A stretch of DNA of 63,198 nt from Gemmatimonadaceae bacterium (GCA_040901985.1 JBBDYC010000002.1:102457-165654); one strand, 5' to 3'. Numbered from the stretch's first letter, positions 13,870 through 63,198 are shown. A program made the numbers and translations. The notes: generated by a model not told the origin, from the letters alone.

Positions 13870-14693
13870 GGACGGCGCTCAGCGGACTCTCGCTTCACCA
13901 GCCGGCGACGATCGCAAGCGCGCTGAAGCTGATGCGCGGCGATCCGCCGCCGCTGCCGATCGCCGGCTGCACGGACGTCTTTGTCCAGCTCAACTTCGGC
14001 ACGCTGAAGGAGACGCAGTTCATCGACCTCTCGCGCATCGGCACGCTGCGGCGGATCGTCGTGCACGACGCGGTGCTGTCGATCGGGGCCACGGCGAGCT
14101 ACGCCGAGATCATGCGGTCGCGCCTGGTGCGCCAGCGACTGCCGATGCTGGTTGCGGCGGCGCGCGAGATCGGCGGTCCGCAAATCCAGGCGCGCGGGAC
14201 GATCGGCGGGAACGTCGCCAATGCGTCGCCGGCGGGTGACACGCTGCCGGTGCTGGCGGCCGCCGATGCGCTGGTCGTGCTCGCGAGCGCCGACGGCGAA
14301 CGGCGCGTGCCGTTCACGGAGTTCTCGACGGGCTACCGCATGACCGTTCGCCGACCGGAGGAACTCGTCGTGGCGATCGAGGTGCCAATCGTGGACGGCC
14401 AGCAGTGGTTCCGGAAGGTCGGGACGCGGGCCGCGCAAGCGATCTCGAAGCTCGTGATGGCCGGAGTGCGCCGGCCGGCCGCGGCGCCGAGCCTGGCGAT
14501 CGGGTCAGTCGCGCCGACGGTGATCCGCCTCCCCCGCACCGAGGCGGCGCTCGGGTCGGGGGCCAGCGTCGCCGCCGCCCAGCGAATTCTCGCGGAGGAG
14601 ATCCAGCCGATTGACGACGTGCGGTCGACCGCCGAGTACCGCCGCCGCGTGGCGAGCAATCTCCTGGAGCGGTTCTGGACCGAGACGGCGTGA
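13866..14693 (+). CDS. Xanthine dehydrogenase FAD-binding subunit
   Basis: GTGA-coupled start; AGCTD, QIQARGTIGGNVANASPAGD and PIDDVRSTAEYRR motifs. Confidence 0.92.
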   Translation: MRTALSGLSLHQPATIASALKLMRGDPPPLPIAGCTDVFVQLNFGTLKETQFIDLSRIGTLRRIVVHDAVLSIGATASYAEIMRSRLVRQRLPMLVAAAREIGGPQIQARGTIGGNVANASPAGDTLPVLAAADALVVLASADGERRVPFTEFSTGYRMTVRRPEELVVAIEVPIVDGQQWFRKVGTRAAQAISKLVMAGVRRPAAAPSLAIGSVAPTVIRLPRTEAALGSGASVAAAQRILAEEIQPIDDVRSTAEYRRRVASNLLERFWTETA

Positions 14694-49532: not shown

Positions 49533-49657
49533 CGAATGGCTCCTCAAGTGGGGATATCCTTGCAGATTACGCGACGGTGAGCGGCGGGGTTGAAGCCACC
49601 GGCGTTCGCAGGCAAGCTGGACACAGCAGCGCACCCCCCTCCCGCGTATCCTCCAAG

Positions 49658-52600
49658 ATGCGACTTTCCCCCGCTTCCCGCCCATTCCGCCTTTTCCACC
49701 TGTCTCGCCTTTCCCGCCGCCTGCACCGCTGGGGGGCGCTCGCCTTGGCGCTTCCGATTGTCTTCGTGGCCGCGTCGGGAATCCTGCTGCAGGTGAAAAA
49801 GCAGGTGGCGTGGGTGCAACCGACCGAACTGCGGACCGACGCCCGAGAGCCGGTGGTGGACTGGGCGACAGTGTTGCGGAATGCACAGGCCGTCCCCGAG
49901 GCCGGCGTACAAAGCTGGGTCGACGTGGACCGCGTGGACCTGCGCCCGGCGAAGGGGATGCTCAAGCTTGTCTCGACGACACGGTGGGAGTTGCAGATGA
50001 ACATCGCCGACGGGAGCGTGCTCCAATCCACCTACCGCCGCTCGGACCTGATCGAGTCGTTGCACGATGGCTCGTTCTTCGGTAGCGGCGTGAAGCTCGG
50101 GGTCTTCCTTCCGACCGGACTGGTGCTCCTCGGGCTCTGGCTGACAGGGATCTACCTCTGGATACTGCCGTATCGCACGAGGCGCCGGCGGGCGCGTCTT
50201 GCAACGGAAGCGGCCCGTGCGCTGGTGCTCGTTGCCGCGTTCGGTGCGTTCGGATCGGTCAGTGCGCAGGGGCGCGCCCGTACGCCCGCGCCCTATGTGC
50301 CCGACGCCACTTGGGAGCGCCGCTCTCCCGCCGCGATGGGCGTGGACAGCGCGCGCCTCGCCGCGGCGATCGCCTTTGCCGTGGAACAGGAGGCCAGCGC
50401 GCCGCGCGACATGGAGGAGAGCCACTACCGGTCGTTCGGCCGCAGCGAGCCCTTCGGCCAGGGGATCGGCCCGTTCAAGCCGCGCGGCGAACCGAGCGGC
50501 GTGATCCTCCGCGGCGGCTACGTGATTGCCAGTTGGGGCGAGCCGGATCGCGTGGATATGACGCACTCCGTCACCAAGAGCTTCCTCTCGGCGGTGGTCG
50601 GCCTGGCGGTGGACCGCGGGCTGATCGCCTCGGTGCGCGACACCGTCTGGAAGTCGCAGGCGCCGGTCCAGCCGCTGCGCACCGCGGCGAGCGCCGAGCC
50701 GGGCGCACGCTTTGGTGAGCCGATGCTCCTCGACCCGTGGGCGACGCCGCACAATCGCACGATCATCTGGGACGACTTGCTGCGGCAGACGAGCGACTGG
50801 GAAGGGACGCTCTGGGGCAAGCCGGAGTGGGCGGACCGCCCGTCGCCGAACCCGAGCGAGTGGCGCACGCGCGCGCGGCGGCCGGCCGGCACGGCGTACG
50901 AGTACAACGACGTGCGGGTGAACGCCCTCGCCCTTGCGGCGACGAACATCTGGCGCCGTCCGCTCCCCGAGGTGCTCGATGAATTCGTGATGACGCCGAT
51001 CGGCGCCTCGCGCACCTGGCGATGGAACGGCTACGACAATGCCTGGATCACGCTCGATGGCCGCGCCGTGCAGTCGGTGAGCGGGGGCGGGCATTGGGGC
51101 GGCGGGATGTTCATCAACGCCTGGGACATGGCACGCTTCGGCCTGCTGACGCAGCGGCGCGGCGTCTGGGGCGACCGCCGGATCCTCTCCGAGGAGTGGG
51201 TGCGCCTCTCCCTCACGCCGACGGCACCCCAGCCGACCTACGGCTATATGAACTGGTTCCTCAACACCGACCGCCGATGGATGCCGAGCGCACCGGCGAG
51301 TGCGTTCGGGCACGTGGGGAACGGGACGAATCTCATCTTCGTGGCGCCGGAACAGGACCTGGTGGTCGTCGTGCGGTGGATCGAGAACCGCGCGGTGGAC
51401 GAGTTCCTGCGCAAGGTGTTCGCGGCGCTGGCGCAGCAGCCGGAGTGGTCGCTCCTCATCCGCAACGGGACAATCATTGACGGCACCGGCGCCGCCGGGT
51501 ACCGCGGCGATGTCGCCGTGCGCGGCGACCAGATCGTCGCGCTCTCCCGCACGCCGCTCGACGCCGCGCGCGCGGCGCGCGTGGTGAACGCCGACGGCCT
51601 GGTCGTCGCGCCGGGATTCATTGACCTGCACGCGCACCTCGAGCCGCTGCTGCGGATGCCCGACGCGCGGAGCCACGTGACCCAGGGCGTGACGCTCGCG
51701 CTCGGCGGTCCCGACGGGAGCGGGCCGCTGCCGCTTGGCGCCTATCTCGACTCGGCGCAACGCGCCGGCCTCGGAATGAACGTCGCCTATCTCGTGGGGC
51801 ACAACAGCGTGCGGCGCGCCGTGTTGGGCACCGCGGACCGCGCGCCGAACGCCGAGGAACTCGCGCGGATGGTGACGCTGGTCCGCCAGGGGATGGGGGA
51901 CGGCGCCTTTGGCATCAGCACCGGCCTTCGCTACGTGCCCGGCTTCTATGCGAAGACCGACGAGGTCATCGTGCTGTCGCGCGCCGCCGCTGACTCGGGC
52001 GGCTTCTACACGTCGCATCTGCGCGAGGAAGGCCTCGGACTCTTCGATGGCGTCGGCGAGGCGATCACCATCGCGCGCGAGGCACGGATCCCGGTGGTGC
52101 TCACGCACCACAAGGCCGTCGGCCCGCCGATGTGGGGGAAGAGCGTCGAGACGCTGCGGATGGTGGATTCCGCGCGCGCGGCCGGGCTCGACGTAATGAT
52201 TGACCAGTATCCATATACGGCGACGTCAACGGGGCTCTCCGTGCTGATCCCGCCCTGGGCGCTCGCTGGCGGCGCGGCCGCGTTCCGGGCCCGCGCGGCC
52301 GACCCGGCGCTCCGCGACAGCATTGCGCGCGGCGTGGTGGAGTTCCTGCGCACCGACCGCGGTGGCGGCGACACCCGGCGCGTGCAGTTCGGGCGCGTCT
52401 CCTGGGACGCGACCCTCGAGGGGCGCACGCTGTTTGACTGGGCCGAGCGGCGCGGTGTGGGACCGTCGCTCGAGGCGGCGGCGGCACTGGTGATCGAAGG
52501 CGAACTCAATGGCGGCGCGTCAATGGTCTACCACGTCCTCGACGAATCCGACGTGCGCCGGATCATGCAGCATCCGCAGACGATGATTGCGAGCGATGGC

Positions 52601-52957
52601 CGGCTGACGCGGCCGGGCGAGGGCGTGCCACACCCGCGCGCGTACGGGACGTTCCCCCGCGTGCTCGGACATTATGTGCGCGACGAGCGCGTGCTGACGC
52701 TCGAGCAGGCGGTGCACAAGATGACCGGGCTGCCGGCGCGGCGACTCGGGCTCGAGCGGCAGCGCGGCTGCCTTGCCGTGGGATGCGCGGCGGACCTGAC
52801 GCTGTTCGACGCGGCGCGCGTGGGAAGTCCGGCGACATTTGCTGATCCGCACCGGTATGCGGTGGGAATCAGCTATGTGTTCGTGAACGGGGAGGCGGTG
52901 GTGGATGATGGAGAGTTCACGCGGGCGAGACCTGGGCGGGCGCTGCGGCGACGTTAG
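49658..52957 (+). CDS. Triple fusion: PepSY-associated TM domain, beta-lactamase-family serine hydrolase, N-acyl-D-amino acid deacylase
   Basis: RRLHRW...SGILL...LHDGSFF...LTGIYLW; SVTK and YEYND; PGFIDLHAH, SHLREE, SDG and HPRAYGTFPRVLG. One uninterrupted frame; start uncertain. Confidence 0.8.
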   Translation: MRLSPASRPFRLFHLSRLSRRLHRWGALALALPIVFVAASGILLQVKKQVAWVQPTELRTDAREPVVDWATVLRNAQAVPEAGVQSWVDVDRVDLRPAKGMLKLVSTTRWELQMNIADGSVLQSTYRRSDLIESLHDGSFFGSGVKLGVFLPTGLVLLGLWLTGIYLWILPYRTRRRRARLATEAARALVLVAAFGAFGSVSAQGRARTPAPYVPDATWERRSPAAMGVDSARLAAAIAFAVEQEASAPRDMEESHYRSFGRSEPFGQGIGPFKPRGEPSGVILRGGYVIASWGEPDRVDMTHSVTKSFLSAVVGLAVDRGLIASVRDTVWKSQAPVQPLRTAASAEPGARFGEPMLLDPWATPHNRTIIWDDLLRQTSDWEGTLWGKPEWADRPSPNPSEWRTRARRPAGTAYEYNDVRVNALALAATNIWRRPLPEVLDEFVMTPIGASRTWRWNGYDNAWITLDGRAVQSVSGGGHWGGGMFINAWDMARFGLLTQRRGVWGDRRILSEEWVRLSLTPTAPQPTYGYMNWFLNTDRRWMPSAPASAFGHVGNGTNLIFVAPEQDLVVVVRWIENRAVDEFLRKVFAALAQQPEWSLLIRNGTIIDGTGAAGYRGDVAVRGDQIVALSRTPLDAARAARVVNADGLVVAPGFIDLHAHLEPLLRMPDARSHVTQGVTLALGGPDGSGPLPLGAYLDSAQRAGLGMNVAYLVGHNSVRRAVLGTADRAPNAEELARMVTLVRQGMGDGAFGISTGLRYVPGFYAKTDEVIVLSRAAADSGGFYTSHLREEGLGLFDGVGEAITIAREARIPVVLTHHKAVGPPMWGKSVETLRMVDSARAAGLDVMIDQYPYTATSTGLSVLIPPWALAGGAAAFRARAADPALRDSIARGVVEFLRTDRGGGDTRRVQFGRVSWDATLEGRTLFDWAERRGVGPSLEAAAALVIEGELNGGASMVYHVLDESDVRRIMQHPQTMIASDGRLTRPGEGVPHPRAYGTFPRVLGHYVRDERVLTLEQAVHKMTGLPARRLGLERQRGCLAVGCAADLTLFDAARVGSPATFADPHRYAVGISYVFVNGEAVVDDGEFTRARPGRALRRR
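49664..49717. repeat. Degenerate 9-bp tandem repeat (6 units, ctttcccgc consensus)
   Basis: ctttccccc gcttcccgc ccattccgc cttttccac ctgtctcgc ctttcccgc. Confidence 0.55.
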
Positions 52958-53228
52958 GGTACTTTGGACGTCGCCCGCTCCTCCAAGGGCTTGCTCAGCC
53001 GCATCGCGTCGTCGTCCGTGCGAATCACCCGCGGCGTAATGAAAATGAAGAGCTCTGTTTCTGTCGTGCGCCGTTCGGCCGACCCAAAGAGCCCTCCGAG
53101 TAACGGAATCGCCGAGAGAAGCGGGAGCCCACGCTGAGAAACGTCATGCTGGCGGTCGGTGAGGCCACCGAGGGCGACTGTTTGTCCATCGCGCACGAGA
53201 AGTTGTGTCTGCACGCTTCGAGTGGAGA
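52954..53228 (-). pseudogene. C-terminal fragment of a secretin (GspD/PilQ family), cut by IS3
   Basis: TRSVQTQLLVRDGQTVALGGL...GLPLLSAIPLLGGLFGS...TELFIFITPRVI; the upstream part is replaced by the IS end. Confidence 0.88.
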
Positions 53229-53259
53229 TGGAGTTCACCCGCCATAGTGGACAGCCAAG

Positions 53260-54132
53260 TTAGCCTGCCCTGAGCAACTGCGTTTCATATTGCACGGGCG
53301 ATCGAAAGCCCAGCGACGAGTGTTGTCGCTCCCGATTGTACCATACGTCGATGAACTCGGCGACGGCGCGTCGCGCCGCCTCCCGCGTGTCGAAGGGCCC
53401 GTCGTCCAACAGCTCCTTCGTGAGCGTCGCGAAGAAGCTCTCGACCACCGCGTTGTCCCAGCAGTCGCCCTTGCGGCTCATGCTGCCGGCGAGTCCGCCG
53501 TCGCGGAGCGCGCGCTGATATGCCACGCTCGCGTACTGTGAGCCGCGGTCGGAGTGATGCAGCACACCGCACGCGTTCCGCTGACGGCGCGCCATCTGCA
53601 ACGCGGCGAGCGCCAGCTCGTGGTCGAGCCGCACACTCGCGCCCCAGCCCACCACGCGGCGCGACGCCAGATCCACCACCACGGCGAGATAGAGCCAGCC
53701 CTCGCGCGTCGGCACGTACGTGATGTCCGCCGCCCAGCGCCGGTTGAGCCCCGGTTGTTCGTGCACCGCAAAGCGTCGCGCGAGCACGTTTGGTGCCACC
53801 GGCTGCGCGTGCGCCGAGTTCGTCGTCACCACGAAGCGGTGCGCTCCCTTCGCGCGCAGGCCCGCGACGCGCATCAGCCGCGCCACGCGCTTCTCGCTGC
53901 ACTGATGCCCCGCCGCGCGGAGCTCGCGGCAGAGCCGCGGACTCCCGTAGCGCCGCCGGAGGCGGTAGAACTGCTGCCGCACGTGCACCAGGAGCGCCGC
54001 ATCGGCCTGCTTCCGCAACCCAAACGGTTCGGCACGCCACTTGTAGAAGCCAGCCCTCGACACCTGCAGCACCCGGCACATCGTGGTGATGCGCCAAGTG
54101 GTGGCGTGCGCATGGATGAACGCGTATCTCAC
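53260..54132 (-). CDS. IS3 transposase OrfB (integrase core)
   Basis: YGSPR, WAADITY, HHSDRGSQY, CWDNAVVESFF and YN..R.HSSLG..SP motifs. Confidence 0.93.
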   Translation of the reverse strand: MRYAFIHAHATTWRITTMCRVLQVSRAGFYKWRAEPFGLRKQADAALLVHVRQQFYRLRRRYGSPRLCRELRAAGHQCSEKRVARLMRVAGLRAKGAHRFVVTTNSAHAQPVAPNVLARRFAVHEQPGLNRRWAADITYVPTREGWLYLAVVVDLASRRVVGWGASVRLDHELALAALQMARRQRNACGVLHHSDRGSQYASVAYQRALRDGGLAGSMSRKGDCWDNAVVESFFATLTKELLDDGPFDTREAARRAVAEFIDVWYNRERQHSSLGFRSPVQYETQLLRAG

Positions 54133-54422
54133 CGCGCATCCCTGGCGAAGAAGGCCGTCGCTTTTTTTAGGATCTCGCGCTCCTCCTTCAGGCGCGCGTT
54201 CTCGCGCCGGAGCACGCGGTTCTCCTCCGCCAGCGTCGGCGGGCGCTGATCCGGCGGCGCGTACCCCGCCACGCGCGCATCGCGCCGCCAATTGCGGAGC
54301 GTCTCCACATGGACCCCCAGTTCCTGCGCGAGCGCCCGGATGGGGGTCGTGCCCTCCTGCACCCGACGCAGCGCCTCCTCGCGGAACTCGATACTGTACG
54401 CCTTCGGCTGTGCCTTCTTCAT
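54129..54422 (-). CDS. IS3 transposase OrfA
   Basis: YS.EFREEA, HTH and EREILKKATAFFA; RBS AGGAGG. Confidence 0.92.
   Translation of the reverse strand: MKKAQPKAYSIEFREEALRRVQEGTTPIRALAQELGVHVETLRNWRRDARVAGYAPPDQRPPTLAEENRVLRRENARLKEEREILKKATAFFARDAR
54161..54168 (-). other. Programmed -1 frameshift site (A7G) joining OrfA and OrfB
   Basis: Minus strand CTAAAAAAAG in the OrfA/OrfB overlap, canonical for the IS3 family. Confidence 0.8.
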
Positions 54423-54488
54423 GGAACACCTCCTGTCCGGAATCTCCGTCCGGACCGTTGCGGTGTCCACTAAATCGGGTGAACATCA

Positions 54489-54537
54489 CCTTTCGCAGGG
54501 TCGGCCACGACGATATGACTGCGGAGATCACAGATGA
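54489..54537 (+). pseudogene. Last about 15 codons of an Rhs toxin C-terminus, truncated by IS3
   Basis: LSQGRPRRYDCGDHR* matches the end of the 60450-61070 toxin (HSQGRPRRYACGTH*); ATGA overlap with the next gene. Confidence 0.7.
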
Positions 54538-55052
54538 CGTCGCAAGTCCGAACAAGGGAGATTCCGCGCGAAGGGATTGTGACGCTAGGAACGTCGACGA
54601 GGTTGACCGTCTCCCTTCGCGGAGTCGGCATCGCCGTTGCCCTATTTGTCATCGCGAGTTCTTGCGTCAGGCCACCAACTCCTGTCATCACGCCTCCCCC
54701 GCTGGAACTTGATCCGGGTTGCGTTCCGATTTCGTTCGAGCATGGCGGGATTCGCGCGCGCGAACCGGATATTGAAGGCCTTCGGGACTCCGCCGGAGTA
54801 TTCTTTGGGATCGTCGTTGACAATGGTTCGGGATTTGCCCTTCCCGGTGCGTCCGTATCGGTGCACGGAGTTGTAGAGCGACGCGCCCGTAGCACCACGA
54901 CAGGAGGATTCGTGCTGACGGGCCTCCCGCCGGGCCGCTACGAGGTATGGGTTCGATCGATCGGGTACCATCCGACTAGAGATTCGATATTGGTGGCACG
55001 AGTCGCTTCGGTCTCAAAATTCTTTCGCCTTCAGGCCGTCAGTTGCCACTGA
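54534..55052 (+). CDS. Putative immunity lipoprotein with carboxypeptidase-regulatory-like domain
   Basis: Hydrophobic stretch plus ASSC; G.V.D..SG..LPGA.V...GGF...GLPPG.Y; paralog of 59953-60450. Confidence 0.7.
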   Translation: MTSQVRTREIPREGIVTLGTSTRLTVSLRGVGIAVALFVIASSCVRPPTPVITPPPLELDPGCVPISFEHGGIRAREPDIEGLRDSAGVFFGIVVDNGSGFALPGASVSVHGVVERRARSTTTGGFVLTGLPPGRYEVWVRSIGYHPTRDSILVARVASVSKFFRLQAVSCH

Positions 55053-55243
55053 TCGCGGAGACCGTGATGATTTGAGGGCGGCGGCGAGGGCGGCTTGGGG
55101 CGCACCATTCACGTACTCCAGCCGAGTACGCTCGATTCACCACCTCAGCACCCGCGAGGCCCCCCGATTGTCAGCATAGGACTGGACTCAAGTCGGGGGG
55201 AATCCCGTGCGCCCACACACTCCAAATCGAAGACGAGTGAGAC

Positions 55244-55729
55244 ATGAGAACCCTCGGCGCTTGGCGCGTTGTTGCCTCTGCCATCATCATCGTAGTCCTC
55301 TCGGGACCTGCGTGCTCACAACAAGCGAGTATGCGACGAGCGTATGAACGCGCTGGGGCGCCCCCACCTTCCTTCCCGTCGCGAAGCGAGAGGCGCGCAA
55401 TAGAGGCACTAGTTCGCGAGTTTTGGACTGCCGCGCAGGCACGTGACTCAATTCGCATCGATGCGTTGTCGAGCTCGCGCGCGCCATTGGAATACGTTGG
55501 TGCCTTCTTTTTTGGCGGGAGTTGGCTCGATGTTCCGTACGATCACCTCGATGTACTTCAGCCGTATAAGCCTGCGAGCCCAAGTAATCACTATGTAGTG
55601 CAGGTCACCCTTCCGAGGCAAGCTTGCCCACCGCAGTATGGTTTGAAACGCCAGAAAGAGTTCGTGTTCGAAGTCATTGAGGCTGAGGGGCGTTTCCTCG
55701 TCGCGCGAGTCGGAAGTGATCCCTGCTAG
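55244..55729 (+). CDS. Orphan lipoprotein, possibly NTF2-like; putative immunity protein
   Basis: Signal plus GPAC; AIEALVREFWTAAQARDS resembles AEATMRAWLSAVARGDS in 57153-57542. Confidence 0.55.
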   Translation: MRTLGAWRVVASAIIIVVLSGPACSQQASMRRAYERAGAPPPSFPSRSERRAIEALVREFWTAAQARDSIRIDALSSSRAPLEYVGAFFFGGSWLDVPYDHLDVLQPYKPASPSNHYVVQVTLPRQACPPQYGLKRQKEFVFEVIEAEGRFLVARVGSDPC

Positions 55730-55957
55730 TGTGATGCGCCGGAGATCGCTCTAGCGAATTGGCTGTGAGCTGCTCCTGATTCTGCGGACGGGAACTTGGC
55801 CAACGGCGCCGCATTTTGTCGCCAAGATGATCCGTAGTCGATTCCATCGCGAAAGCCACTACGTTACCATCCCCGCTCCCCTTCGTCTCTCCGCCTACGA
55901 GGTGCGCCGCCGGAGTGACCGGACAGGTGCCCCGCCCTCTCTCCACGCGGAGACACC

Positions 55958-56995
55958 GTGCGTATCGAAGTCGCGCTCGACCAGCATCTGACAGACCTCC
56001 GCGCCATTGGCGCAGCACCAAGCACGACTTCGGGCCGTCGCAATCTACTCAAGTCATTTGTCGCCTATTGCGAGGCGACTGGTGTCACCACGATCGGCGC
56101 ACTGACGTACGCAGTCGCAACCAACTACCAACGGCACCTCTCTGACGTCCGCAACGCCAACGATATCACGTGCTCGATCGGCGGCCAGCGCAATCGCCTC
56201 GTCGCCCTCCGCATGTTTGCCCGATGGGCCGTGCGAACGGGTCTTCTAGATGCGGACCCAACATCAGCCCTCGTCCTTCCCCGACTGCCGCACCGACTGC
56301 CGCAGTCCGTGCTGACATCGAGTGAGGCTGAGCGGGTCCTCGCAGTTCCCGACGTCACCACGCGTCTTGGTCTCCGCGACCGCGCGATCCTCGAACTCCT
56401 CTACTCCTCAGGAATCCGGCGACTCGAACTCATCGCAATCGACATCCCTGATCTCGACCTCGCCCGTGGCGTTCTCTTTATTCGCCTTGGCAAAGGACGA
56501 AAAGACCGGTACGTCCCTGTTGGACAACGCGCACTGGGATGGATCGACCGCTACCTGAGCCGAGCCCGGCCGCAGTTGGTACATCGAACAGATCCCGCCG
56601 CGCTGTTCATAGGAAAGCGCGGCACACGACTGAGCCGCTCACGGATCACGGAACGGATGCATGGTTATCTTGCCGAATCCGGAGTGGCGAAACCCGGAAG
56701 CTGTCACGTGTGGCGCCACACGATGGCCACACTGATGCACGAACGTGGTGCGGACATCCGCGACCTTCAGGTGCTGCTCGGCCATTCACAACTCTCCACT
56801 ACCGCGATCTACACCCATATTTCCACGGAGCGCCTTCAGGAGGTGCACCGGCGAACACCCCCCACCGCGCGCGCAATACACAGCCACACACCGGCACCGC
56901 TCACCACCGAGACCTCAGTCTCCGGCCGGAGTCCGCATGGACCGGAACCGATCACGCAGGCCTCGAACTCGCACGCTGGATGGATCGAGTGCTAG
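55958..56995 (+). CDS. XerC/XerD-like tyrosine recombinase
   Basis: N-terminal SAM-like domain; full catalytic set: R (GIRR), K (GKGRKDR), HxxR (HVWRH), H (LGH), Y (IYTH). Confidence 0.92.
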   Translation: MRIEVALDQHLTDLRAIGAAPSTTSGRRNLLKSFVAYCEATGVTTIGALTYAVATNYQRHLSDVRNANDITCSIGGQRNRLVALRMFARWAVRTGLLDADPTSALVLPRLPHRLPQSVLTSSEAERVLAVPDVTTRLGLRDRAILELLYSSGIRRLELIAIDIPDLDLARGVLFIRLGKGRKDRYVPVGQRALGWIDRYLSRARPQLVHRTDPAALFIGKRGTRLSRSRITERMHGYLAESGVAKPGSCHVWRHTMATLMHERGADIRDLQVLLGHSQLSTTAIYTHISTERLQEVHRRTPPTARAIHSHTPAPLTTETSVSGRSPHGPEPITQASNSHAGWIEC

Positions 56996-57074
56996 TGCTT
57001 GAGTTGCCCACGAGAGCTTGTTCCCAGCATCCCAACTCGTGCAAGAATCTGCGAATCGTCACGGGCACCGTGAA

Positions 57075-57118
57075 TGGAGTTCGCCCTCTCCAATGAATAG
57101 CCAAGTTAGCCTGCCCTG
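57075..57118 (-). mobile_element. Isolated degenerate IS3 right end
   Basis: tggagttcgccctctccaatgaatagccaagttagcctgccctg aligns without gaps to 53229-53272. Confidence 0.8.
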
Positions 57119-57152
57119 TAGCCCGAGACTTTTATAGCGACGATCCGACGAA

Positions 57153-57542
57153 CTACGGAGAGTCTAGGTTAAGCGGCGCGGCCATAATCAACCGCCACGC
57201 GCCAGTTCGCCGCTCCAAAGCTGCCCCGTATCTCCTCTCAAGGTCGAGCGCCAACCTGAACTCTACAAAAGCGGAGTCGCCCGTCTGAAAGAGCGTTTGC
57301 AGTACAATGGTACTGTCGGCTGCCCGCCGATTACCGAGCGTACTATCACGCAGAAGAGTGCGCGCCAGCGCGATCCCGGAACCGCCGTGCGTCAATGAAT
57401 CCAACGCAACAGAGTCCCCGCGGGCGACAGCAGAGAGCCAGGCTCGCATCGTGGCCTCCGCAGGAGAGTCTGGCTTAGCCTGAGCTGAGTGGCATGCCCC
57501 GAAGAGTATCGTGGCGGCCACTAGTGGTATCAGTACTTGCAT
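57153..57542 (-). CDS. Putative immunity lipoprotein (NTF2-like)
   Basis: Lipobox LFGAC; start overlaps the toxin stop; C-terminal LERRTGAWRL. Confidence 0.65.
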   Translation of the reverse strand: MQVLIPLVAATILFGACHSAQAKPDSPAEATMRAWLSAVARGDSVALDSLTHGGSGIALARTLLRDSTLGNRRAADSTIVLQTLFQTGDSAFVEFRLALDLERRYGAALERRTGAWRLIMAAPLNLDSP

Positions 57543-58240
57543 CGAAGCGGCTCCCCTAGATACGCGTGGGCGATATTCTCGGCCGCGACAGCCATCGCTT
57601 GTCCTGACCGAAGCTGTTCGCTCGCTGTTCTTCCCGCGTTGTGCCGCGCTGGATCGAATCGCATGCCCCACGCATGCCCCAACAACTCATGGGCAATAAT
57701 AGAAGCGAAATCGTTATCGGCGTAGTCTGTGGTTGTGCTGAAACAATTCCCGTTGCGGTCACGCGAGAAGTAGCCGCCCCTAAGACTCAGATCAAGGCCT
57801 ACCCGACGAGCCCACGGATAGTAGGCCGACTCCGCGCCCGAGACGCCAACGTAGTACGTTTGGCCATCTTCATGCAACTGGGTGAGTCGACGCCGCAGAA
57901 ACTCCGCCCGCACCGAGTTGGAGTCGGTAACGGCTATGGACTTAATGCAACCGAAGTCGTCGACCTCGATCTTTGATCCAGTGGCGCGCTCAGTCTCGCG
58001 AACGAGCCGACTGCGCTGCGCCGATCCAAAGCACACTATGAATCCTGATGGGTCAGAATTGTTGACAGGGTCTCCTGCGGCGTATCCATATTGGTTCAGT
58101 CCTCCTTTCAGCCCGATCGGGTCGCGCTGCGTGAAGCGGCCCGTTGCTGGATCGTAATACCGATTGCGCACGTACTGCAAGCCGCTCGCGTCCGCCTTGC
58201 CGTCCAGGAGGCTGCCATACCAGCTGACCTCGGCCGGGGG
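57530..58240 (-). CDS. Orphan Rhs core tail plus HExxxH metallopeptidase-like toxin (5' truncated)
   Basis: WYGSLL...SGLQYVRNRYYDPATGRFTQRDPIGL.GG.NQYGYA.GDPVN.SDPSG, then IIAHELLGH...AENIAH...GEPLR. 5' boundary approximate. Confidence 0.85.
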   Translation of the reverse strand, partial: PPAEVSWYGSLLDGKADASGLQYVRNRYYDPATGRFTQRDPIGLKGGLNQYGYAAGDPVNNSDPSGFIVCFGSAQRSRLVRETERATGSKIEVDDFGCIKSIAVTDSNSVRAEFLRRRLTQLHEDGQTYYVGVSGAESAYYPWARRVGLDLSLRGGYFSRDRNGNCFSTTTDYADNDFASIIAHELLGHAWGMRFDPARHNAGRTASEQLRSGQAMAVAAENIAHAYLGEPLRCKY

Positions 58241-58429
58241 CTCGATCCGAGTGTCATTCCCCGGACAGATCCCTCGCGTAGCGGTACGGATCGTCCGGGC
58301 GCGTGAAGACGTCGGTGTGGTGGTTGCCCCGGGTCGGGGCTCGAGTCCGTGTACACCCGGGGGTGTGTCCGCGTCGCCTGCTAGGCGTTCCCCGGAACCG
58401 GAAACGTTGTGTTCGTCTCGACGAAAGCT

Positions 58430-58453
58430 GGGACAACGCAACGTGCTTGTCCC
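58430..58453 (-). terminator. Hairpin downstream of immunity gene 58473-59120
   Basis: gggacaa-cgcaacgtgc-ttgtccc; weak U-tract. Confidence 0.35.
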
Positions 58454-58472
58454 GCGCTGCTTCCAGCATGCG

Positions 58473-59120
58473 TCATCTCAGGAGTATGGTGTGCTGCACA
58501 CCGATACCAGTGAGTGCCGCGATGTCCCGCGCCAACTGCGCGGCGGAATCGGTACCTACTGGGCACGGGAAATACCGTACGTGCCGTTCGCGACCTCTAC
58601 GACGGTCGATCAGTAGATCAAAATCGCCCTGGACGCAAGAATGCGCTGCGGTGTGCTCAGGTGCCTCGGCAGCGAAGAGCGTGACAATTCGGTCGACGAG
58701 CGATACGATTTCCACCTCCGTCATTCCTAGAAGAAGGTCGCAAGTTGCGATGCCACCATATGCAACCGTCGCCGAGCCGACACGCAAGGAACCTGGCCGG
58801 CATACCTGGAGCAATAGGAGCGAGTCCAACTGATAGCCAGCAGGTCTTGTCGCCAACGACAGCGTCTCAAGTATCAGAATGCCGCGAAGCTCTGGTGACT
58901 GGTCACCTCCGACCTGCATCTGAACCTCCACGCGCGGCGAGCAACCGGAACATCCGGCGACCACGCGCCACATAGTTCGTGCAGATGCGGCGTCAGGATG
59001 GACGACACTCTCTTCAGATGGATTGCCCGCTTCAGCGCGTTCGGTGCCCCGATCGCAGGCAAGTGCCGTACCAGCAAGAGCAAGCGAAACAACGAAGGAC
59101 CGCGTCTTCGCCGTGGTCAT
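58473..59120 (-). CDS. Putative immunity lipoprotein (Cys-rich)
   Basis: Lipobox ALAC; ATGA overlap with the toxin stop. Confidence 0.65.
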   Translation of the reverse strand: MTTAKTRSFVVSLALAGTALACDRGTERAEAGNPSEESVVHPDAASARTMWRVVAGCSGCSPRVEVQMQVGGDQSPELRGILILETLSLATRPAGYQLDSLLLLQVCRPGSLRVGSATVAYGGIATCDLLLGMTEVEIVSLVDRIVTLFAAEAPEHTAAHSCVQGDFDLLIDRRRGRERHVRYFPCPVGTDSAAQLARDIAALTGIGVQHTILLR

Positions 59121-59682
59121 GGCCGTGTACCGTCGGGTTTCGTAGTTGAAGGCGTATAGGGACCGAGGTCATCGTAGTCGGTACGGTCTCGCAATCCTAT
59201 TTCAGCGTGCACCAGGTTCTGCATGTCCACGCCACAGGCCTCTCGATTCTCGCCGATGCAGTTGGCTGGCGTACCGCGACGCATCCCAGCAACCGCATGC
59301 GAGAACTCATGCGCGTACACGGCTTCCCATTCCATTTCGCCATTTCGCCGAACTCCCTCACTGTTTAGAAGAATGGTCCCCGAACCGTTGCCGTTGCCGG
59401 CGTAAAACCCACCCCCGAGTTCTGCCACCAGTTCTTCTTCATATTCTCCAAGCGTGTTGCGAATAACGAGGGTATCTGGCGAGTTAGCGGCGAGATTGTA
59501 CCAGCGCCTGAAGGTTGCGGACTTGCGAGTTAGCCTCCAAATGCGTTGCCGATGGCTTTGCGAAAGGTCGCGATCATCAATGATGAGCCCAAACGGATCC
59601 GCGTGATTGACCGGGTCCCCGCCCGCATACCCATACTGGTTGATGCCGCCGGCCAGCCCAATCGGGTCGCGCTGCGTGAACG
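59117..59682 (-). CDS. Orphan Rhs core tail plus HExxH metallopeptidase-like toxin
   Basis: FTQRDPIGLAGGINQYGYAGGDPVNHADPFGL, then VYAHEFSHA...E...QN...EIGL..R..Y. A possible TTG start lies at 59695. Confidence 0.85.
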
Positions 59683-59821
59683 GCACCAATTCCAATCACC
59701 AAGCACCTGGCATCACCACCATACTATACAGGCTAGGCGAACCCACTTCCGCAATCCTCCCCCGAACCAGCCGGTTCAGCTACGCGTCCGGAGGAATCCG
59801 CTTCTTCCGTCTGTAAAGCAT

Positions 59822-59921
59822 CGACGGCTCTCGTCGCTCGGCTTTCGATCGCCGGTGCAATACGAGGCGCATGTGCTTAGGGCAGGCTAACCTAGATGTC
59901 TACCTGAGCGGGTGAACTCCA
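59822..59921 (+). mobile_element. IS3 remnant: OrfB C-terminus plus right IR, inverted relative to 57075
   Basis: SSLGFRSPVQYEAHVLRAG* followed by ...gagcgggtgaactcca. Confidence 0.85.
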
Positions 59922-59952
59922 CCCGTTCCACACATCCCCGCCGCTGACTTGG

Positions 59953-60450
59953 TCACCGACAGTGACTGAACGCCTGCATTCTGTACGATCGCGCGACGAC
60001 GGAGTTCGCGCGACTCGCAATCGTGTCGAGAAGCGGCCGATGCAGCGCGCGCAACGCCGTGAGCTCGTATTGACCAGGTAACAGTCCACGAAAGGAGAAA
60101 CCTCCGTCGAAACTCGTTCTCGACTCAAGAACCTCTGAGTGCGATAGCAGGCGCAGTCGAACTACCACATCGGGAACGGCAAAGCCAGAACCGAAGTCGG
60201 CTACTGTACCCACTACTGTAGCGCTACCGTCGCGCGGAACTGGAGGCTCGAGGAGAACCGGCACAACTCGGTCGTGCTGGAGTGCCGTGGGATAACACCC
60301 GTTCTCTGCTTCCGCACCTGCGACCGGTCCCAAGCGTGTCGCAACAAATGAACAGCCGAAAACAGCGGCGAGTGCACAGAGCGCCACGACTTGCAGCCTC
60401 CAAGGTCTGTTTCGAAATGGCAACTCTGGATTGCGTATAATTCCGCGCAT
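59953..60450 (-). CDS. Putative immunity lipoprotein with carboxypeptidase-regulatory-like domain
   Basis: Lipobox VFGC; GTVADFGSGFAVP...DGGFSFRGLLPGQY; TGATG coupling to the toxin. Confidence 0.7.
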   Translation of the reverse strand: MRGIIRNPELPFRNRPWRLQVVALCALAAVFGCSFVATRLGPVAGAEAENGCYPTALQHDRVVPVLLEPPVPRDGSATVVGTVADFGSGFAVPDVVVRLRLLSHSEVLESRTSFDGGFSFRGLLPGQYELTALRALHRPLLDTIASRANSVVARSYRMQAFSHCR

Positions 60451-61070
60451 CAGTGAGTTCCGCATGCGTAGCGCCTCGGCCGACCCTGTGAGTGATGAAT
60501 CTCGTTTTCCCAGTCCATCGCAGCATCAGGATTCAGCGTGTGACCCAGTTGATAAGCGGGATGACCAAATTCGTGAGCGGTCATAGACTCCTCTGTGTTG
60601 CGGGTCTGACTGTTTTTCTCGCAGTTACCGCGCGCATCATGCGTGTAGTACTTTCCGAATCTCAAGGCAAAGCGGTTAAGGTCGATAATCAAGACAAGGT
60701 CTCCGGTCGCTAGGGTACCACTGCTGAGTCGACTCTGTGTCGGTCGAAACAGTGACCACCGAACGTAGATTGTTACCTCTCTGCTCTCCGCCAACTGCTT
60801 GAAAGCCGTGGCCCGATCGGTAACGGGGCCGACTATGACAACGTTCTTCGCGCAATTGTCGTCATCCAAATCAAACGTCGTGCCAGTCGCGCGCTCGGTC
60901 GCGGCCCTCTGTCGGAGGATGGATTCTTTGCTTCCCCGAAAACAGACCCTCTCTCCAAAAGGGTCTGAGTGGTTCACCGGGTCGGCCTCGGCGAAACCAT
61001 ACTGGTTAAGTCCACCAACTAGCCCAATCGGGTCCCGCTGCGTGAACCGCCCCGTCCCCGAATCGTACCA
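60450..61070 (-). CDS. Orphan Rhs core tail plus HExxH metallopeptidase-like toxin (no start before the core)
   Basis: In-frame TGA, then WYDSGTGRFTQRDPIGLVGGLNQYGFAEADPVNHSDPFG, then MTAHEFGH...WENEIH...GRPRRY. Confidence 0.85.
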   Translation of the reverse strand, partial: WYDSGTGRFTQRDPIGLVGGLNQYGFAEADPVNHSDPFGERVCFRGSKESILRQRAATERATGTTFDLDDDNCAKNVVIVGPVTDRATAFKQLAESREVTIYVRWSLFRPTQSRLSSGTLATGDLVLIIDLNRFALRFGKYYTHDARGNCEKNSQTRNTEESMTAHEFGHPAYQLGHTLNPDAAMDWENEIHHSQGRPRRYACGTH

Positions 61071-61105
61071 TCAGGTGCGGGTGTACCGCACCCGCCCGGC
61101 GCAGT

Positions 61106-61699
61106 TCATCGGGCTCGAGGAAAAGGCCCCACCACCGCCTCGGCACGCCGGGCGACGCGTTCAAGTTCGTCGAGCACCTCCGGCGCCTCTTTGAGCTTCG
61201 CCAGTTCGCTGAGGTCGGCCCAGAGTTGCGGCCAGGCCAGTGCGCCCTTCTGCCGCACGAGGACTCCTTCGATGTCGACCCAGTCTTGCGGTCGACCAGC
61301 GAATGCCTTGTGCACCACGAGGTCCGTCGCCGTGCAGGTCCGCAGGACGGCCCCGTGCGCCAGCTCCGCGTCAGTCGCACGGGCGATCGTCGCCTCCTCG
61401 AACGGCATCGCCCCCAGCGCCACATCGACGGCGAACCCGTCCGCCGTGCGGAGCAACAGGACCCGATGCTGCCGCGCGAAATCCGCGGCGTCCGGGATGC
61501 GGGGATCAAGGTCCTCAAGCAGGGCGGTGATTACCGGCTCCTCGCCGCCGAAGCCGGCCAGCACGGTCAGGTCCAGATCGTTCGTGAGCCGCGGCGTTCC
61601 CCAGCGGAAGTTCGCGATGCCGCCGATGAAGCAGAACCGGAAGCCGCGCGCGACGAGTCCGGCCTGCACGCGGGCGCCCGCCTGCAGCAGCGATCTCAC
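61106..61699 (-). CDS. AbiEii/MenT1-like nucleotidyltransferase, putative toxin
   Basis: IGG.A....PR.T.DLD, VD, T..DLVVHK and RPQD..D motifs; GTGA overlap with the small upstream gene. Confidence 0.8.
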   Translation of the reverse strand: MRSLLQAGARVQAGLVARGFRFCFIGGIANFRWGTPRLTNDLDLTVLAGFGGEEPVITALLEDLDPRIPDAADFARQHRVLLLRTADGFAVDVALGAMPFEEATIARATDAELAHGAVLRTCTATDLVVHKAFAGRPQDWVDIEGVLVRQKGALAWPQLWADLSELAKLKEAPEVLDELERVARRAEAVVGPFPRAR

Positions 61700-61923
61700 C
61701 GGCGCAGGGCCCGCGCGAAGAGCCGCTGCTGCGCCACCAGTCCCGAGGACCGGTCCACCGGCTCCGCGCGCACGCGCGCCCACAGTGCCTCTTCGAGCTC
61801 GTCGGCGACCCGCCAGAGATCGACCGCCTCAAGTTCTCGGGCCCGCACGCGCGCCAGGGCAGGGCCCGCCGCTCGCCACTGCGACATCCACGCCTGCGCC
61901 TGAGCCTCGGTCGGCTTGATCAT
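61696..61923 (-). CDS. Small helical protein, putative antitoxin
   Basis: 75 aa, translationally coupled upstream of the nucleotidyltransferase. Confidence 0.65.
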   Translation of the reverse strand: MIKPTEAQAQAWMSQWRAAGPALARVRARELEAVDLWRVADELEEALWARVRAEPVDRSSGLVAQQRLFARALRR

Positions 61924-62115
61924 GGACGAAAGGTACCACGCCCGCGCCCGGCACGCCCAAGACTCTGAGGCGCACGCGAGCGTACGCCATCGCGGTGCAG
62001 GCCAAACCGCCGCGGCAAAACGATAGGTTAGGCCTGAGTTTGCAGGGCCCTTTCAGGTTCTCGGCACCCAGGACTTGGCCAAGCGCAATCAGCCACCTGA
62101 CCCGCCCATTCGCCT

Positions 62116-62640
62116 TCACTGTGGCGTGGCGCTGAGCATCCTCTGAACCTCCTCGAGCGTGCGCACCGCTCTGCGATACGCACTGTCTGCCTGCAAGCGA
62201 AGTGCTGAACCGGAATCCGCCAGTTCCTGCGCACGCTGGAAGGCGCCGACGGCCTCCCGTTGGTCGTCAAGATTCCACGAACCAAATCCGCGATACGCGC
62301 GACGTGATGCAACCGCTCCACGCAAGTACCAGCCCTGCGCATTGAGAGAATCCGTCGCCAAGGCAAACCGCAGAATCTCGGCCGACGATGAGAAAACCGC
62401 ATAACGCAGGTGTTCGTCTCCCTCGGTCTCGCCGGTCGAATCCGAGAACAACTTCCGCGCCGCAAGTTCTTCGCGCTCAAAAATCTCCCGAGCGAGATCG
62501 ACAGGATCTTCGGACGCACCGCCCGAGGTCGTCCTATGCGTGCCGTTTGCCGTGGGCCTCTGTTCATTTCCACCCGCGCATGCCGCAAGAGCGGCCACAG
62601 TAAGCATAGAAGTAGCGATCCGTCTGGCGCTGCGTGTCAT
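62116..62640 (-). CDS. Putative immunity lipoprotein (TPR-like helical)
   Basis: Lipobox LAAC; ATGA overlap with the toxin stop; A.GWYLRG...A..AFQRAQEL. Confidence 0.65.
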   Translation of the reverse strand: MTRSARRIATSMLTVAALAACAGGNEQRPTANGTHRTTSGGASEDPVDLAREIFEREELAARKLFSDSTGETEGDEHLRYAVFSSSAEILRFALATDSLNAQGWYLRGAVASRRAYRGFGSWNLDDQREAVGAFQRAQELADSGSALRLQADSAYRRAVRTLEEVQRMLSATPQ

Positions 62641-63179
62641 GGATTCTTCCTCTCGGGCAGCCCCGGGGTAGTCTCTCCAGCGGCGTTCTCGTTCCAGGTG
62701 GCTTTTCGATTCTTGATGTCTACGTGGGTATGCGGACCATGCTTTGCTGACCCCTCGTAGTACCCAACACCATTGAACAGACCGCTTTCGTTCGCCTTGT
62801 GGGCGAGCTCCAGATTGTCCATCCCTACGACGTGAATGTCGGCTCCCTCTCCGGACAAGTGCGGGCTTTCGAGTGCGCCCTCCACACTGCGGTTTGACGC
62901 AGCCGTGCGGTCACCGGAGTTCTGGCCATTGAGCACCACGTCCCTGCCTACGTGTTGAGCGAACTGCTCAAGGCGCTCCCGCATCCGAGGATTCGACAGT
63001 GTCGCCCCGTTCAGAATGACAGTGCAGTCCGCCGTGTTGTTGTCTCGCGGCGGGCACAGTCCAAATGGGTCACTGAAATTGATGGGATCCCCACCCGCAT
63101 ACCCATACTGGTTGATCCCCCCCGCCAGCCCGATCGGGTCGCGCTGCGTGAAGCGACCCGTCGCCGGATTGTAGTGCAA
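62637..63179 (-). CDS. Orphan Rhs core tail plus peptidase M15 (DD-peptidase/Hedgehog fold) toxin
   Basis: YNPATGRFTQRDPIGLAGGINQYGYAGGDPINFSDPFGL, then SG.R....N..V.GA..SPH..G.GAD...GVGYY...HTHVD. Confidence 0.87.
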   Translation of the reverse strand: MHYNPATGRFTQRDPIGLAGGINQYGYAGGDPINFSDPFGLCPPRDNNTADCTVILNGATLSNPRMRERLEQFAQHVGRDVVLNGQNSGDRTAASNRSVEGALESPHLSGEGADIHVVGMDNLELAHKANESGLFNGVGYYEGSAKHGPHTHVDIKNRKATWNENAAGETTPGLPERKNP

Positions 63180-63198
63180 GATTCAATCGTAGGCAGAC

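Follow-up and report, generated by a model that had tools for sequence, protein, structure and literature searches.

The window, the 63,198-nucleotide stretch of Gemmatimonadaceae DNA analysed here, ends in an array of Rhs toxin tips and predicted lipoprotein genes gathered around a tyrosine recombinase gene. The features of the locus are given below, where CT stands for the C-terminal toxin part, W1 to W4 for the four Rhs-derived genes, G000 for the assembly containing the window and G072 for a near-complete genome of the same genus.

52954–53238, minus strand: last ~91 codons of a GspD-type secretin gene, cut by IS3 (Pfam Secretin; 86% to the C-terminus of the G072 secretin).
53229–54488, minus strand: IS3-family element with orfA/orfB, terminal inverted repeats and an A7 stretch, without target-site duplication.
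54489–54537, plus strand: toxin C-terminal stub of 15 codons resembling the CT3 end, cut by the IS3 end (inverted repeat I2, translation).
54534–55052, plus strand: predicted lipoprotein with a carboxypeptidase-regulatory-like domain, imm3 paralogue, putative immunity gene.
55244–55729, plus strand: orphan predicted lipoprotein with a lipobox-like motif, putative immunity gene, no match in Pfam, NCBIfam or PADLOC.
55958–56995, plus strand: tyrosine recombinase gene, solo in that neither a primase nor an HTH gene lies upstream; nearest model PRK01287, all catalytic residues present.
57074–57118, minus strand: IS3 right-end remnant of 45 bp, 82% to the intact IS end.
57153–57542, minus strand: imm1, predicted lipoprotein, putative immunity gene, start inferred at the ATG before the lipobox.
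57530–58273, minus strand: W1, with ~47 rhs core codons, tail and a 169-aa CT with HExxxH (zinc-protease-like).
58117–58144, minus strand: 28-bp candidate recombination site in W1, core-type left arm.
58473–59120, minus strand: imm2, predicted lipoprotein, putative immunity gene.
59117–59689, minus strand: W2, a site-cut tail followed by a 155-aa CT with HExxH (zinc-protease-like).
59662–59689, minus strand: 28-bp candidate recombination site in W2, weakest left arm.
59690–59824, minus strand: 3' end of a sigma-54 regulator gene and downstream spacer, 91% copy of G000 contig C8.
59822–59921, plus strand: IS3 orfB end and right inverted repeat, 100 bp, 81%.
59953–60465, minus strand: imm3, predicted lipoprotein with a carboxypeptidase-regulatory-like domain, putative immunity gene.
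60450–61070, minus strand: W3, in which 8 core-like codons and the tail precede a 166-aa CT with HExxH, CT1 paralogue.
61028–61055, minus strand: 28-bp candidate recombination site in W3.
61106–61923, minus strand: AbiEii-like nucleotidyltransferase and small upstream gene, recurring array cargo (Pfam/PADLOC matches weak, below cut-off).
62116–62640, minus strand: imm4, predicted lipoprotein, putative immunity gene.
62637–63182, minus strand: W4, in which 8 core-like codons and the tail precede a CT of 139 aa, peptidase M15 type (peptidoglycan-peptidase-like; PF08291, 45 bits).
63134–63161, minus strand: 28-bp candidate recombination site in W4, best arm symmetry, left flank common to a second tail (contig C7).

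The four minus-strand cassettes described in the initial annotation are present, as copies of repeat family D1 at 58043, 59588, 60954 and 63060. All four share the Rhs core tail, with scores above the TIGR03696 cut-off of 32.5 bits (69.4, 36.7, 44.1 and 52.4 bits), and after DPxG their CTs are unrelated, with the W1/W3 pair as sole exception (31% over 140 aa). The proposed coupling to lipoprotein genes also holds: directly behind each CT lies an ORF with a lipobox-like motif (4/4, overlapping stop and start), and the motif is found in 6/6 downstream ORFs of the window. The six lipoprotein and four CT frames are all open, and the cassettes have 57–61% GC. Homologues of the window CTs or lipoproteins were not found in the related loci searched, and orf6 and imm1 have no real similarity. 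The fifth stub, on the plus strand, is real; it is only 15 codons long, its partner resembles imm3 (31%), and it lacks an Rhs tail because the IS3 end cuts it.

Two other parts of that description need amendment. The core remnants left of the central hexamer of the 28-bp site do differ (~47, 1, 8 and 8 codons), but one intact site is found in all four cassettes, in the same register. The two blocks were said to converge on the recombinase: the minus-strand block faces it, whereas the plus-strand block lies on the same strand and reads into its 5' end. The AbiEii-like toxin-antitoxin pair, the two IS3 end remnants and the secretin fragment had gone unmentioned; the pair has 78–92% homologues within arrays or beside the integrase in five genomes (G009, G017, G025, G033 and G072).

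The recombinase had been described as XerC/D-like with all catalytic residues. The residues are indeed there (R154, K179, H250, R253, H276 and Y285, aligned to XerD 1a0p), but the model scores rule out XerC and XerD, at 219 vs 335 bits for TIGR02224 and 217 vs 330 bits for TIGR02225, and separate xerC and xerD genes and a dif-like site lie elsewhere in G000. An IntI identity was rejected as well (TIGR02249, 104 bits vs a cut-off of 265). The best of 10 models, by 119 bits, is PRK01287 (NF002331), at 341.8 bits against a cut-off of 371. The frame is intact, GGAG lies upstream of the start, and the enzyme departs from 6/103 near-invariant columns (range 0–14). Two primase and three HTH queries against G000 returned only the host DnaG, hence no complete HTH-primase-integrase element.

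A recombinase whose homologues had no link to Rhs tails would have spoken against the toxin/immunity store initially proposed. In relatives, these homologues do flank Rhs tails, at 11/17 integrase loci vs 0/20 xerC/xerD loci, the latter taken from 12 of the same 13 genomes. Among the genomes compared, which are kin and mostly incomplete, TIGR03696 is present in 12/13 integrase-positive vs 12/47 integrase-negative genomes. Integrase loci from GTDB have Rhs tails in 41/74 cases and a primase gene in 62/74. Beyond these, IMG/VR holds two integrase loci and the JGI metagenomes five short ones, in one of which (L185) the integrase is immediately followed by a stub cut at the site; INPHARED phages gave no match.

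The candidate recombination site lies inside the rhs core. It is an imperfect inverted repeat (11-6-11) centred on the hexamer CACGCA, over F-T-Q codons at the core 3' end. All 56 stubs compared (56/56) match the rhs core of their own locus from the same base: identity is 0.26–0.34 left of position -13, about 0.5 over the left arm, and jumps to 1.00 at the hexamer, while cores among themselves keep 0.54–0.83 left of the site. The constraint is on DNA, with ACG in 107/107 Thr codons (genome use 51%), CCG in 103/107 and GGG in 97/107, and synonymous positions are fixed across the site and free further right. Pairing of positions -2 to -4 with +6 to +8 holds in 11/11 G072 sites; the arm symmetry score of the site is modest (0.49, next best 0.46, cores peaking elsewhere at 0.52). 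Within a locus, bases +7 to +9 do not vary. Among 55 genomes the window variant of the site occurs only in G000 and G072; in other lineages the breakpoints are at other core positions, and their position tracks the integrase lineage.

The four window sites are all in direct orientation, and no site was found beside the integrase or on the plus strand of the window. Only W2, whose left arm is degenerate, is cut exactly at the site; W1, W3 and W4 retain core-like bases left of it. Two left flanks in G000 each pair with two right-hand variants (W4/C7 and W2/C8). W2 and C8 share their left flank (91%) and fall to 71% right of the hexamer, and a site also follows the sigma-54 regulator gene on C8.

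Orphan Rhs-CT/immunity arrays and C-terminal displacement are treated in passages of Jackson 2009 (PMC2935791), Koskiniemi 2014 (PMC3967940) and Hagan 2023 (PMC10539506). The passage in the first leaves open how Rhs/CDI tips are displaced without loss and what carries them between cells, and that in the last still ascribes displacement, in 2023, to homologous recombination. Under this published model, tips would be displaced through recombination, homologous or else illegitimate and homology-facilitated, within the conserved tail, the integrase would be a passenger of an element once inserted nearby, and the apparent site would reflect protein conservation and gene conversion among repeats. 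The core-like sequence left of three window sites is in line with it, the uniform bases +7 to +9 fit conversion, and G018 (84% complete) has two site-cut stubs where no such integrase was found. Moreover, in one G027 pair with the same tip the sequences still differ immediately right of the site, the switch lying inside the tail, which indicates that the tail also undergoes homologous recombination or conversion. Yet the model predicts remnants of variable length, whereas the stubs share one base of departure; synonymous positions are fixed over the site and free beyond it, tandem units and circles start at the break, and tails in G019 and G007, two genomes in which searches found no integrase of this kind, keep long core remnants. 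We consider this explanation unlikely for these loci as a whole: a fixed 28-base site with a dedicated recombinase points to site-specific tip swapping, not to the chance homologous recombination usually assumed.

The related loci suggest how such swapping would work. Elsewhere, homologues of the window integrase form HTH-primase-integrase elements that have a full-length rhs or cdiA-like gene on one side and a displaced tip on the other, and that often occur as tandem copies. In L094, a tandem unit of 7,977 nt, 99.6% identical, begins inside the core, and two circular records, 8.8 and 11.3 kb long, contain Rhs tips together with xerC, primase, HTH and SymE genes; both tandem units and circles start at the break. 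An identical tip is found on the core and behind the element end in two pairs in G126 and again in G027, with the switch at the site. Assembly may have produced the G027 duplication and the circular records. Nearest to the window is G072, which shares its site variant, AbiEii-like pair, secretin end and, in quick trees built without outgroup or bootstrap, integrase subclade, and which has a full rhs, a type II secretion system (T2SS), 11 site-led cassettes and a convergent solo integrase, with one site in reverse and 11 in forward orientation, a shufflon-type inverted layout.

From these comparisons of sequence, we propose that the window is probably a decayed polymorphic-toxin locus with its own site-specific recombinase, and that toxin-tip exchange there was integrase-catalysed. 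The recombinase would descend from HTH-primase-integrase elements that carry a toxin tip and an immunity gene behind a site matching the 28-bp sequence at the rhs core 3' end. Integration at the core site would fuse the incoming tip in frame to the core and push the old tip downstream. In the genus of the window, the integrase would have lost its primase and come to adjoin arrays of site-led CT/immunity cassettes; in G072, where the site in rhs and those of the array point towards each other, an inversion event would bring any one of the tips onto the core, in the manner of a shufflon. The T2SS may export the product, with the tips acting as toxins and the lipoproteins as immunity proteins. 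In the window, IS3 and deletions would have removed the T2SS and rhs core, and on the four direct sites left the enzyme is predicted only to excise or insert cassettes.

With somewhat less assurance, though still on balance, we favour a wider reading: the "XerC + CHC2 primase + HTH" islands would be undescribed toxin-tip integrative elements, self-replicating circles with a toxin C-terminus and an immunity gene, inserting into rhs, cdiA or other genes for polymorphic toxins at a site that differs by lineage; they would correspond to the episomal pool predicted in 2009. In the window genus the integrase would have been domesticated into a toxin shufflon inverting rhs and T2SS against an array of up to 11 tips, the window being a decayed instance. 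We found no description of such a recombinase-linked toxin-tip system in the open-access literature. If this is true, an enzyme directs the exchange of tips and may allow switching within a population, the common "XerC" annotation is explained, and a tyrosine recombinase recombining in frame inside coding sequence becomes open to study. The enzyme family, the 28-bp site, the circular and tandem forms and the intact model locus in G072 make tip exchange testable; the window itself, a damaged copy, has its value as a pointer.

The site might instead be real but serve another enzyme, either the XerC/XerD pair of the host or an integrase of the integron type that acts on attC-like hairpins. We take the 11-6-11 layout to be dif-like; G000 has xerC, xerD and two integrases that, from their motifs, presumably resemble IntI, and attC-like hairpins precede many stubs in G027 and G009. 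The site is nevertheless unlike the host dif-like site on contig C6, and no dif-like site was found in the window. Two motif-and-folding scans found no attC in 53000–63198, while the same scans found hairpins on contig C3 and in G027. In addition, xerC/xerD are in all genomes tested, yet the tails cluster beside the window-type integrase, and the break position does not follow host Xer. We regard use by another enzyme as very unlikely, and retain the window-type integrase as the probable catalyst.

Like the orphan Rhs-CT arrays of the passages cited above, the window has Rhs tails to DPxG followed by divergent CTs, with a small gene directly behind each; core remnant, DPxG, variable CT and downstream partner gene are stacked in strings, and tips match the core of their own locus. 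Unlike what those passages describe, window-type loci have a fixed break and an adjacent integrase, often with a primase. A full-length rhs lies upstream of the array in G072; as initially noted, none is in the window, whose end is the contig end, in a repeat at 63198, and none was found in G000. The PRK01287 "XerC" elements (CHC2/Toprim primase, HTH and SymE in database annotation) share the integrase family and the position between a full toxin gene (Rhs, CdiA/FHA or FG-GAP) and an orphan tip, whereas the window enzyme is solo, with neither primase nor HTH beside it, is oriented towards the array and falls below the family cut-off. No paper on the function of such elements was found in the open-access literature.

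In the R64-type shufflon (Rci/sfx), a tyrosine recombinase switches the C-terminal coding part of PilV at repeated sites. The C-terminal swap of one gene at repeated sites is similar, and G072, with inverted sites around the constant gene part, has a layout that allows inversion; the window keeps only direct sites. Here, by contrast, the site is within the Rhs toxin core, each tip has a partner gene, and the invertible segment would include the constant part and the T2SS. Integrons also have an integrase beside an array of site-delimited cassettes, but the window enzyme is not IntI, the window has no detected attC, and the site is a short inverted repeat inside coding sequence. In the part of Kirchberger 2017 (PMC5361080) that likens Vibrio effector-immunity arrays to integrons, sequential displacement is shared and no evidence for an integrase is reported. 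Tyrosine recombinases beside immunity-type gene arrays are also found at polyimmunity loci, which adjoin XerC/D-like genes according to a passage of Zhang 2012 (PMC3482391), and in rAID, which PMC12247911 describes as a Bacteroidales system with immunity-only genes of less than 41% GC, co-oriented and downstream of a recombinase. The window cassettes differ from rAID as defined there: they are GC-richer, carry toxin tips behind an rhs-derived site and face the enzyme.

The window copy looks decayed. No rhs core, T2SS or primase was found in the G000 assembly, nor any match to the first ~400 residues of the G072 secretin; judged by its similarity, the secretin fragment is what is left of the T2SS cluster found together with rhs in relatives. 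Immunity may still be conferred by the lipoprotein genes. A stronger claim would be that the window is a working integron-like immunity store, whose solo integrase continues excising and inserting CT/immunity cassettes at direct sites, selection acting on the lipoprotein genes and the tips being silent. The intact integrase gene, the open frames and the two left flanks with two right-hand variants each fit this claim; the degenerate left arm of W2, the IS3 damage on both sides, the two IS3 end remnants inside the array and the captured regulator fragment do not. Nor do the contigs of the probable source run, the level at which joints were sought: they have flat depth and no supported rearrangement joint. 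We judge a working store distinctly unlikely, and keep to a decayed locus. Candidate joints with sides of 21–34 letters, mostly from other runs, were assigned to other organisms. Of the runs compared, only the probable source run contains the stretch, of which X2 and X3 have almost nothing. Rfam gave no match in 52900–63198, and promoter and terminator scans were at chance level (4 vs 2.3 and 5 vs 6.4). Finally, the suggestion that IS elements belong to the machinery was not borne out: orfB matches occur in only 8 distinct loci of the 91 searched, and here IS3 truncates both neighbours and has no target duplication, so that it looks like damage. The element stands at single-copy depth in the probable source run.

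We infer that a tyrosine integrase probably catalyses the exchange of Rhs tips at a fixed 28-bp site in the 3′ end of the rhs core, and that the window holds a decayed case. In loci with both a full core and stubs (tips behind a truncated core tail), stub-core homology begins at a single point: in L036, L039, L045, L047 and L050 it lies 96 nt before DPxGx ends, and in L094, L097 and L104 the distance is 183, 131 and 102 nt, with both stubs of each locus in agreement. Numbered from the central hexamer CACGCA, the identity of 56 stubs (13 chosen locus groups) to their own core is 0.26-0.34 at -60 to -13, about 0.5 at -12 to -2, 1.00 at -1 to +5 and 0.95 at +6 to +21; as stubs are defined by lacking the RNR..D...G.F motif, the far-left values are depressed by construction, but not the -2/-1 step. 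Left of the site, cores of different loci stay 0.54-0.83 identical.

ACGCAG occurs in 108 of 117 tails from same-genus genomes. After subtraction of three tails of another rhs type (one in G007, two with another hexamer), five duplicates and two with short flanks, the remaining 107, which are not independent samples, encode Thr by ACG in 107 cases (genome use 51%), Pro by CCG in 103 (61%) and Gly by GGG in 97 (25%), and their third positions vary further right of the site. Around CACGCA, the consensus forms an imperfect 11-6-11 inverted repeat (arms GGGTC/GACCC), at whose centre stub symmetry is maximal, if modestly so (0.49, next 0.46). Position -2 is T in 19/19 cores and, in 34/84 stubs, a C that pairs with +6. 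A site matrix trained without the source assembly (G000) found six matches there, namely the four window cassettes and two tails:

G000 C7:1-2082: site-bearing Rhs tail at the contig end, then a partner gene, a UPF0150-like gene and an IS3 end
G000 C8:1-1180: site-bearing Rhs tail at the contig end, after a sigma-54 regulator

In all g1 arrays, the three bases directly right of the hexamer do not vary within a locus and equal those of the resident rhs while the tips are unrelated, a uniformity that neither simple integration nor simple inversion explains.

The window recombinase (55958-56995, plus strand) had initially been called XerC/D-like with all catalytic residues. All six residues are present, but the enzyme is not XerC or XerD itself: the best model is NF002331/PRK01287 (341.8 bits, below the cut-off of 371), with much lower scores for those of XerC, XerD and IntI. 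Separate xerC and xerD genes and a dif-like site exist elsewhere in G000. In a quick tree with no outgroup, the enzyme lies within a nine-row group (SH-aLRT 92) including the solo integrases of the related genome G072 and of locus L071. Among 74 GTDB loci retrieved with a 30-protein alignment, a few of which repeat one contig or genome, 62 match a CHC2/Toprim primase of ~1,000 aa and 41 an Rhs tail (37 and 31 among the 45 loci of at least 10 kb); the tail matches are partly by construction, since their profile started from window tails and was refined by iteration over these loci, and TIGR03696 independently recovers many of the same places. The common gene order is full rhs, CT (tip), partner, HTH (reverse), primase, integrase, Rhs stub; a search of G000 for the primase and HTH gave no counterpart of this element.

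The association of recombinase homologues with Rhs tails, which the initial annotation had named as a test, is borne out in relatives: tails lie at 11/17 integrase loci versus 0/20 xerC/xerD loci (20 of the 23 xerC/xerD matches, from 12 of 13 genomes and covering 294 kb). TIGR03696 is found in 12/13 integrase-positive versus 12/47 integrase-negative genomes (G000 excluded), which are kin and often incomplete. Beside these counts, use of the site by another enzyme appears very improbable. None of the window's four sites, all direct, adjoins the integrase. Four same-genus loci (L019:6732-8468, L020:1512-4418, L022 and L023) carry the integrase and a primase fragment, its N-terminal catalytic and Toprim part, in one open frame, and may represent a step on the way from full elements to solo integrases. 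In L166, L167 and L168, an HTH-primase-xerC unit lies behind CdiA/FHA-like and FG-GAP toxin genes.

The window's site variant is found in 2/55 genomes of the genus, G000 (four copies) and G072 (11 forward, one reverse), the latter with an intact layout:

G072:C2:563034-593685 (L180, L171, L172): intact model locus

There, a 1,898-aa rhs lies on one strand with a divergent sigma-54 regulator, T2SS E, F, K and on to a secretin 86% identical to the window's secretin fragment, which suggests, on gene content, a T2SS dedicated to such Rhs proteins. Eleven cassettes with near-identical sites follow, including the window's AbiEii-like pair; positions -2 to -4 pair with +6 to +8 in 11/11 sites, and none of the 11 tips matches the window's four. 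The solo integrase, which begins 17 nt after a housekeeping gene, faces the array convergently, as also in G009, G010, G027, G031 and a second G072 locus. As the site in rhs points the opposite way from those of the array, inversion would, from tyrosine-recombinase geometry, fuse any tip to the core. Integrases of such domesticated loci would exchange tips by inversion or excision at 28-bp sites, and full elements by integration of tip-bearing circles. A fused serine-hydrolase/amidohydrolase gene (window 49478-52957) also borders an rhs-tail/integrase locus in G032:C9 (L030/L183; 82-85% identity, different cassettes).

Traces of exchange are found in relatives. In G126 (three contigs), an identical tip lies behind the rhs core and elsewhere behind an element end, with the switch at the site in two of three same-tip pairs. 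The same arrangement is seen in G027:C8, perhaps an assembly of two states. L094 holds a 7,977-nt unit in tandem (99.6% identical, tips A, A, B) that begins at the break, and two stubs of an FHA-like gene in L167 begin at one same base of the full gene. Circular records NZ_CP055112.1 (8,758 bp) and NZ_CP072857.1 (11,289 bp) carry xerC, primase, HTH, SymE and Rhs tips, with stubs beginning at the DP codons; these could represent excision products or tandem units closed into circles. In G000, the second window cassette (W2) and the C8 tail share a left flank (91% over 140 nt) and fall to 71% just right of the hexamer, and the fourth (W4) and C7 share a left flank that forks at +7, where the probable source run's own assembly is likewise broken, by a 139-nt contig of 2.6x depth. 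Tips moved by homologous recombination, with the integrase as passenger, would account for one G027 pair that diverges just right of the site and for two site-cut stubs in G018, which has only two Xer-level matches; we nevertheless consider this explanation unlikely, and integrase-catalysed exchange the better reading. In G027:C8:172000-202326 (L024, L116, L144), the same five cassettes flank an rhs-T2SS-integrase block in inverted copies, which may be a genuine duplication or two inversion states assembled together.

The window itself comprises the terminal 63,198 bases of contig C2 of G000 (assembly of 2.64 Mb, 19 contigs), with GC at ~0.61 over 54489-63198, down from 0.70:

58043, 59588, 60954 and 63060, minus strand: Rhs-tail repeats of one family, 4/4 passing TIGR03696

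Much of the initial description stands: the four cassettes share the tail and diverge after DPxG, each overlaps a downstream lipoprotein-like partner ORF, and two more immunity-like genes lie on the plus strand. The tips CT1-CT4 (169, 155, 166 and 139 aa after DPxG) show kinship only between CT1 and CT3. HExxH is found in CT2 and CT3 and HExxxH in CT1; CT1 and CT2 lie near M85/M91/PipA-type zinc proteases by atlas features (scores 0.95 and 0.96, leads only), and CT4 is of peptidase M15 type. As lipobox-like motifs occur in 6/6 partner ORFs (four overlapping CTs, two plus-strand), the pattern fits periplasm-acting toxins with lipoprotein immunity. Core remnants measure ~47 codons in W1, none past the site arm in W2 and eight in both W3 and W4; all four cassettes hold the 28-bp site whole and in one register. 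The announced fifth stub is present on the plus strand as only 15 codons, similar to the CT3 end and severed by an IS3 (53229-54488, no target duplication) that truncates the secretin gene on its other side. Six right-end remnants of IS3, with no transposase, also occur:

Window 57074-57118
Window 59822-59921
G000 C7:1927-2082
G000 C8:58482-58625
G000 C9:112556-112703
G000 C17:93239-93294

The same IS3 (87%) is inserted 17 nt from a site in L031. As initially stated, no full-length rhs lies in the window: a search of G000 for the G072 rhs and secretin N-terminus returned only tails and the secretin fragment. An rhs on a missing contig may be conceivable, as the contig ends in a repeat, but the IS3 is at single-copy depth in the probable source run and the secretin is cut. 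Contigs of that run, which drop rare forms, gave no supported rearrangement. W2, W3 and W4 have in-frame stops a short way upstream. A still-working immunity store is improbable, and we favour a decayed array.

Searches of the open-access literature yielded no account of such an element or of site-specific tip exchange, though Additional File 1 of Zhang 2012 could include loci of this sort. Term searches within PMC3150448, PMC5131962, PMC4725963, PMC11751169, PMC10011098, PMC4487195 and two 2026 preprints gave nothing relevant to the question. Excerpts of Jackson 2009 (PMC2935791) propose homologous recombination via a hypothetical circle and know of no integrase with Rhs; homologous recombination is also the model in those of Koskiniemi 2014 (PMC3967940) and Hagan 2023 (PMC10539506). 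Further points of comparison are the Vibrio effector-immunity arrays of Kirchberger 2017 (PMC5361080) and the rAID preprint (PMC12247911); in Zhang 2012 (PMC3482391), polyimmunity loci adjoin XerC/D, and rhs and primase go unmentioned in passages of Smyshlyaev 2021 (PMC8138268). As an array of Rhs tips the locus belongs to a known kind, from which it is set apart by its fixed site, a dedicated integrase family and an invertible arrangement; its mechanism is directly testable.

General features of shufflons, of integron attC, of dif and of IntI served for comparison. In G000, an attC-like hairpin is found at C3:742, and two integron-integrase-like genes lie close to contig starts of low GC:

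G000 C3:2285-3361: integron-integrase-like gene
G000 C17:1025-2011: integron-integrase-like gene

A ~62-nt hairpin, which we take to resemble integron attC, directly precedes many Rhs stubs (L032:3309-7231 and 12578-13873; L117:15825-18109 in G027; L019, L119, and L150 in G009). Its end overlaps rhs-derived bases left of the site, and eight copies align at 94%; Rhs tip/immunity modules of G027 and G009 may double as integron-type cassettes.
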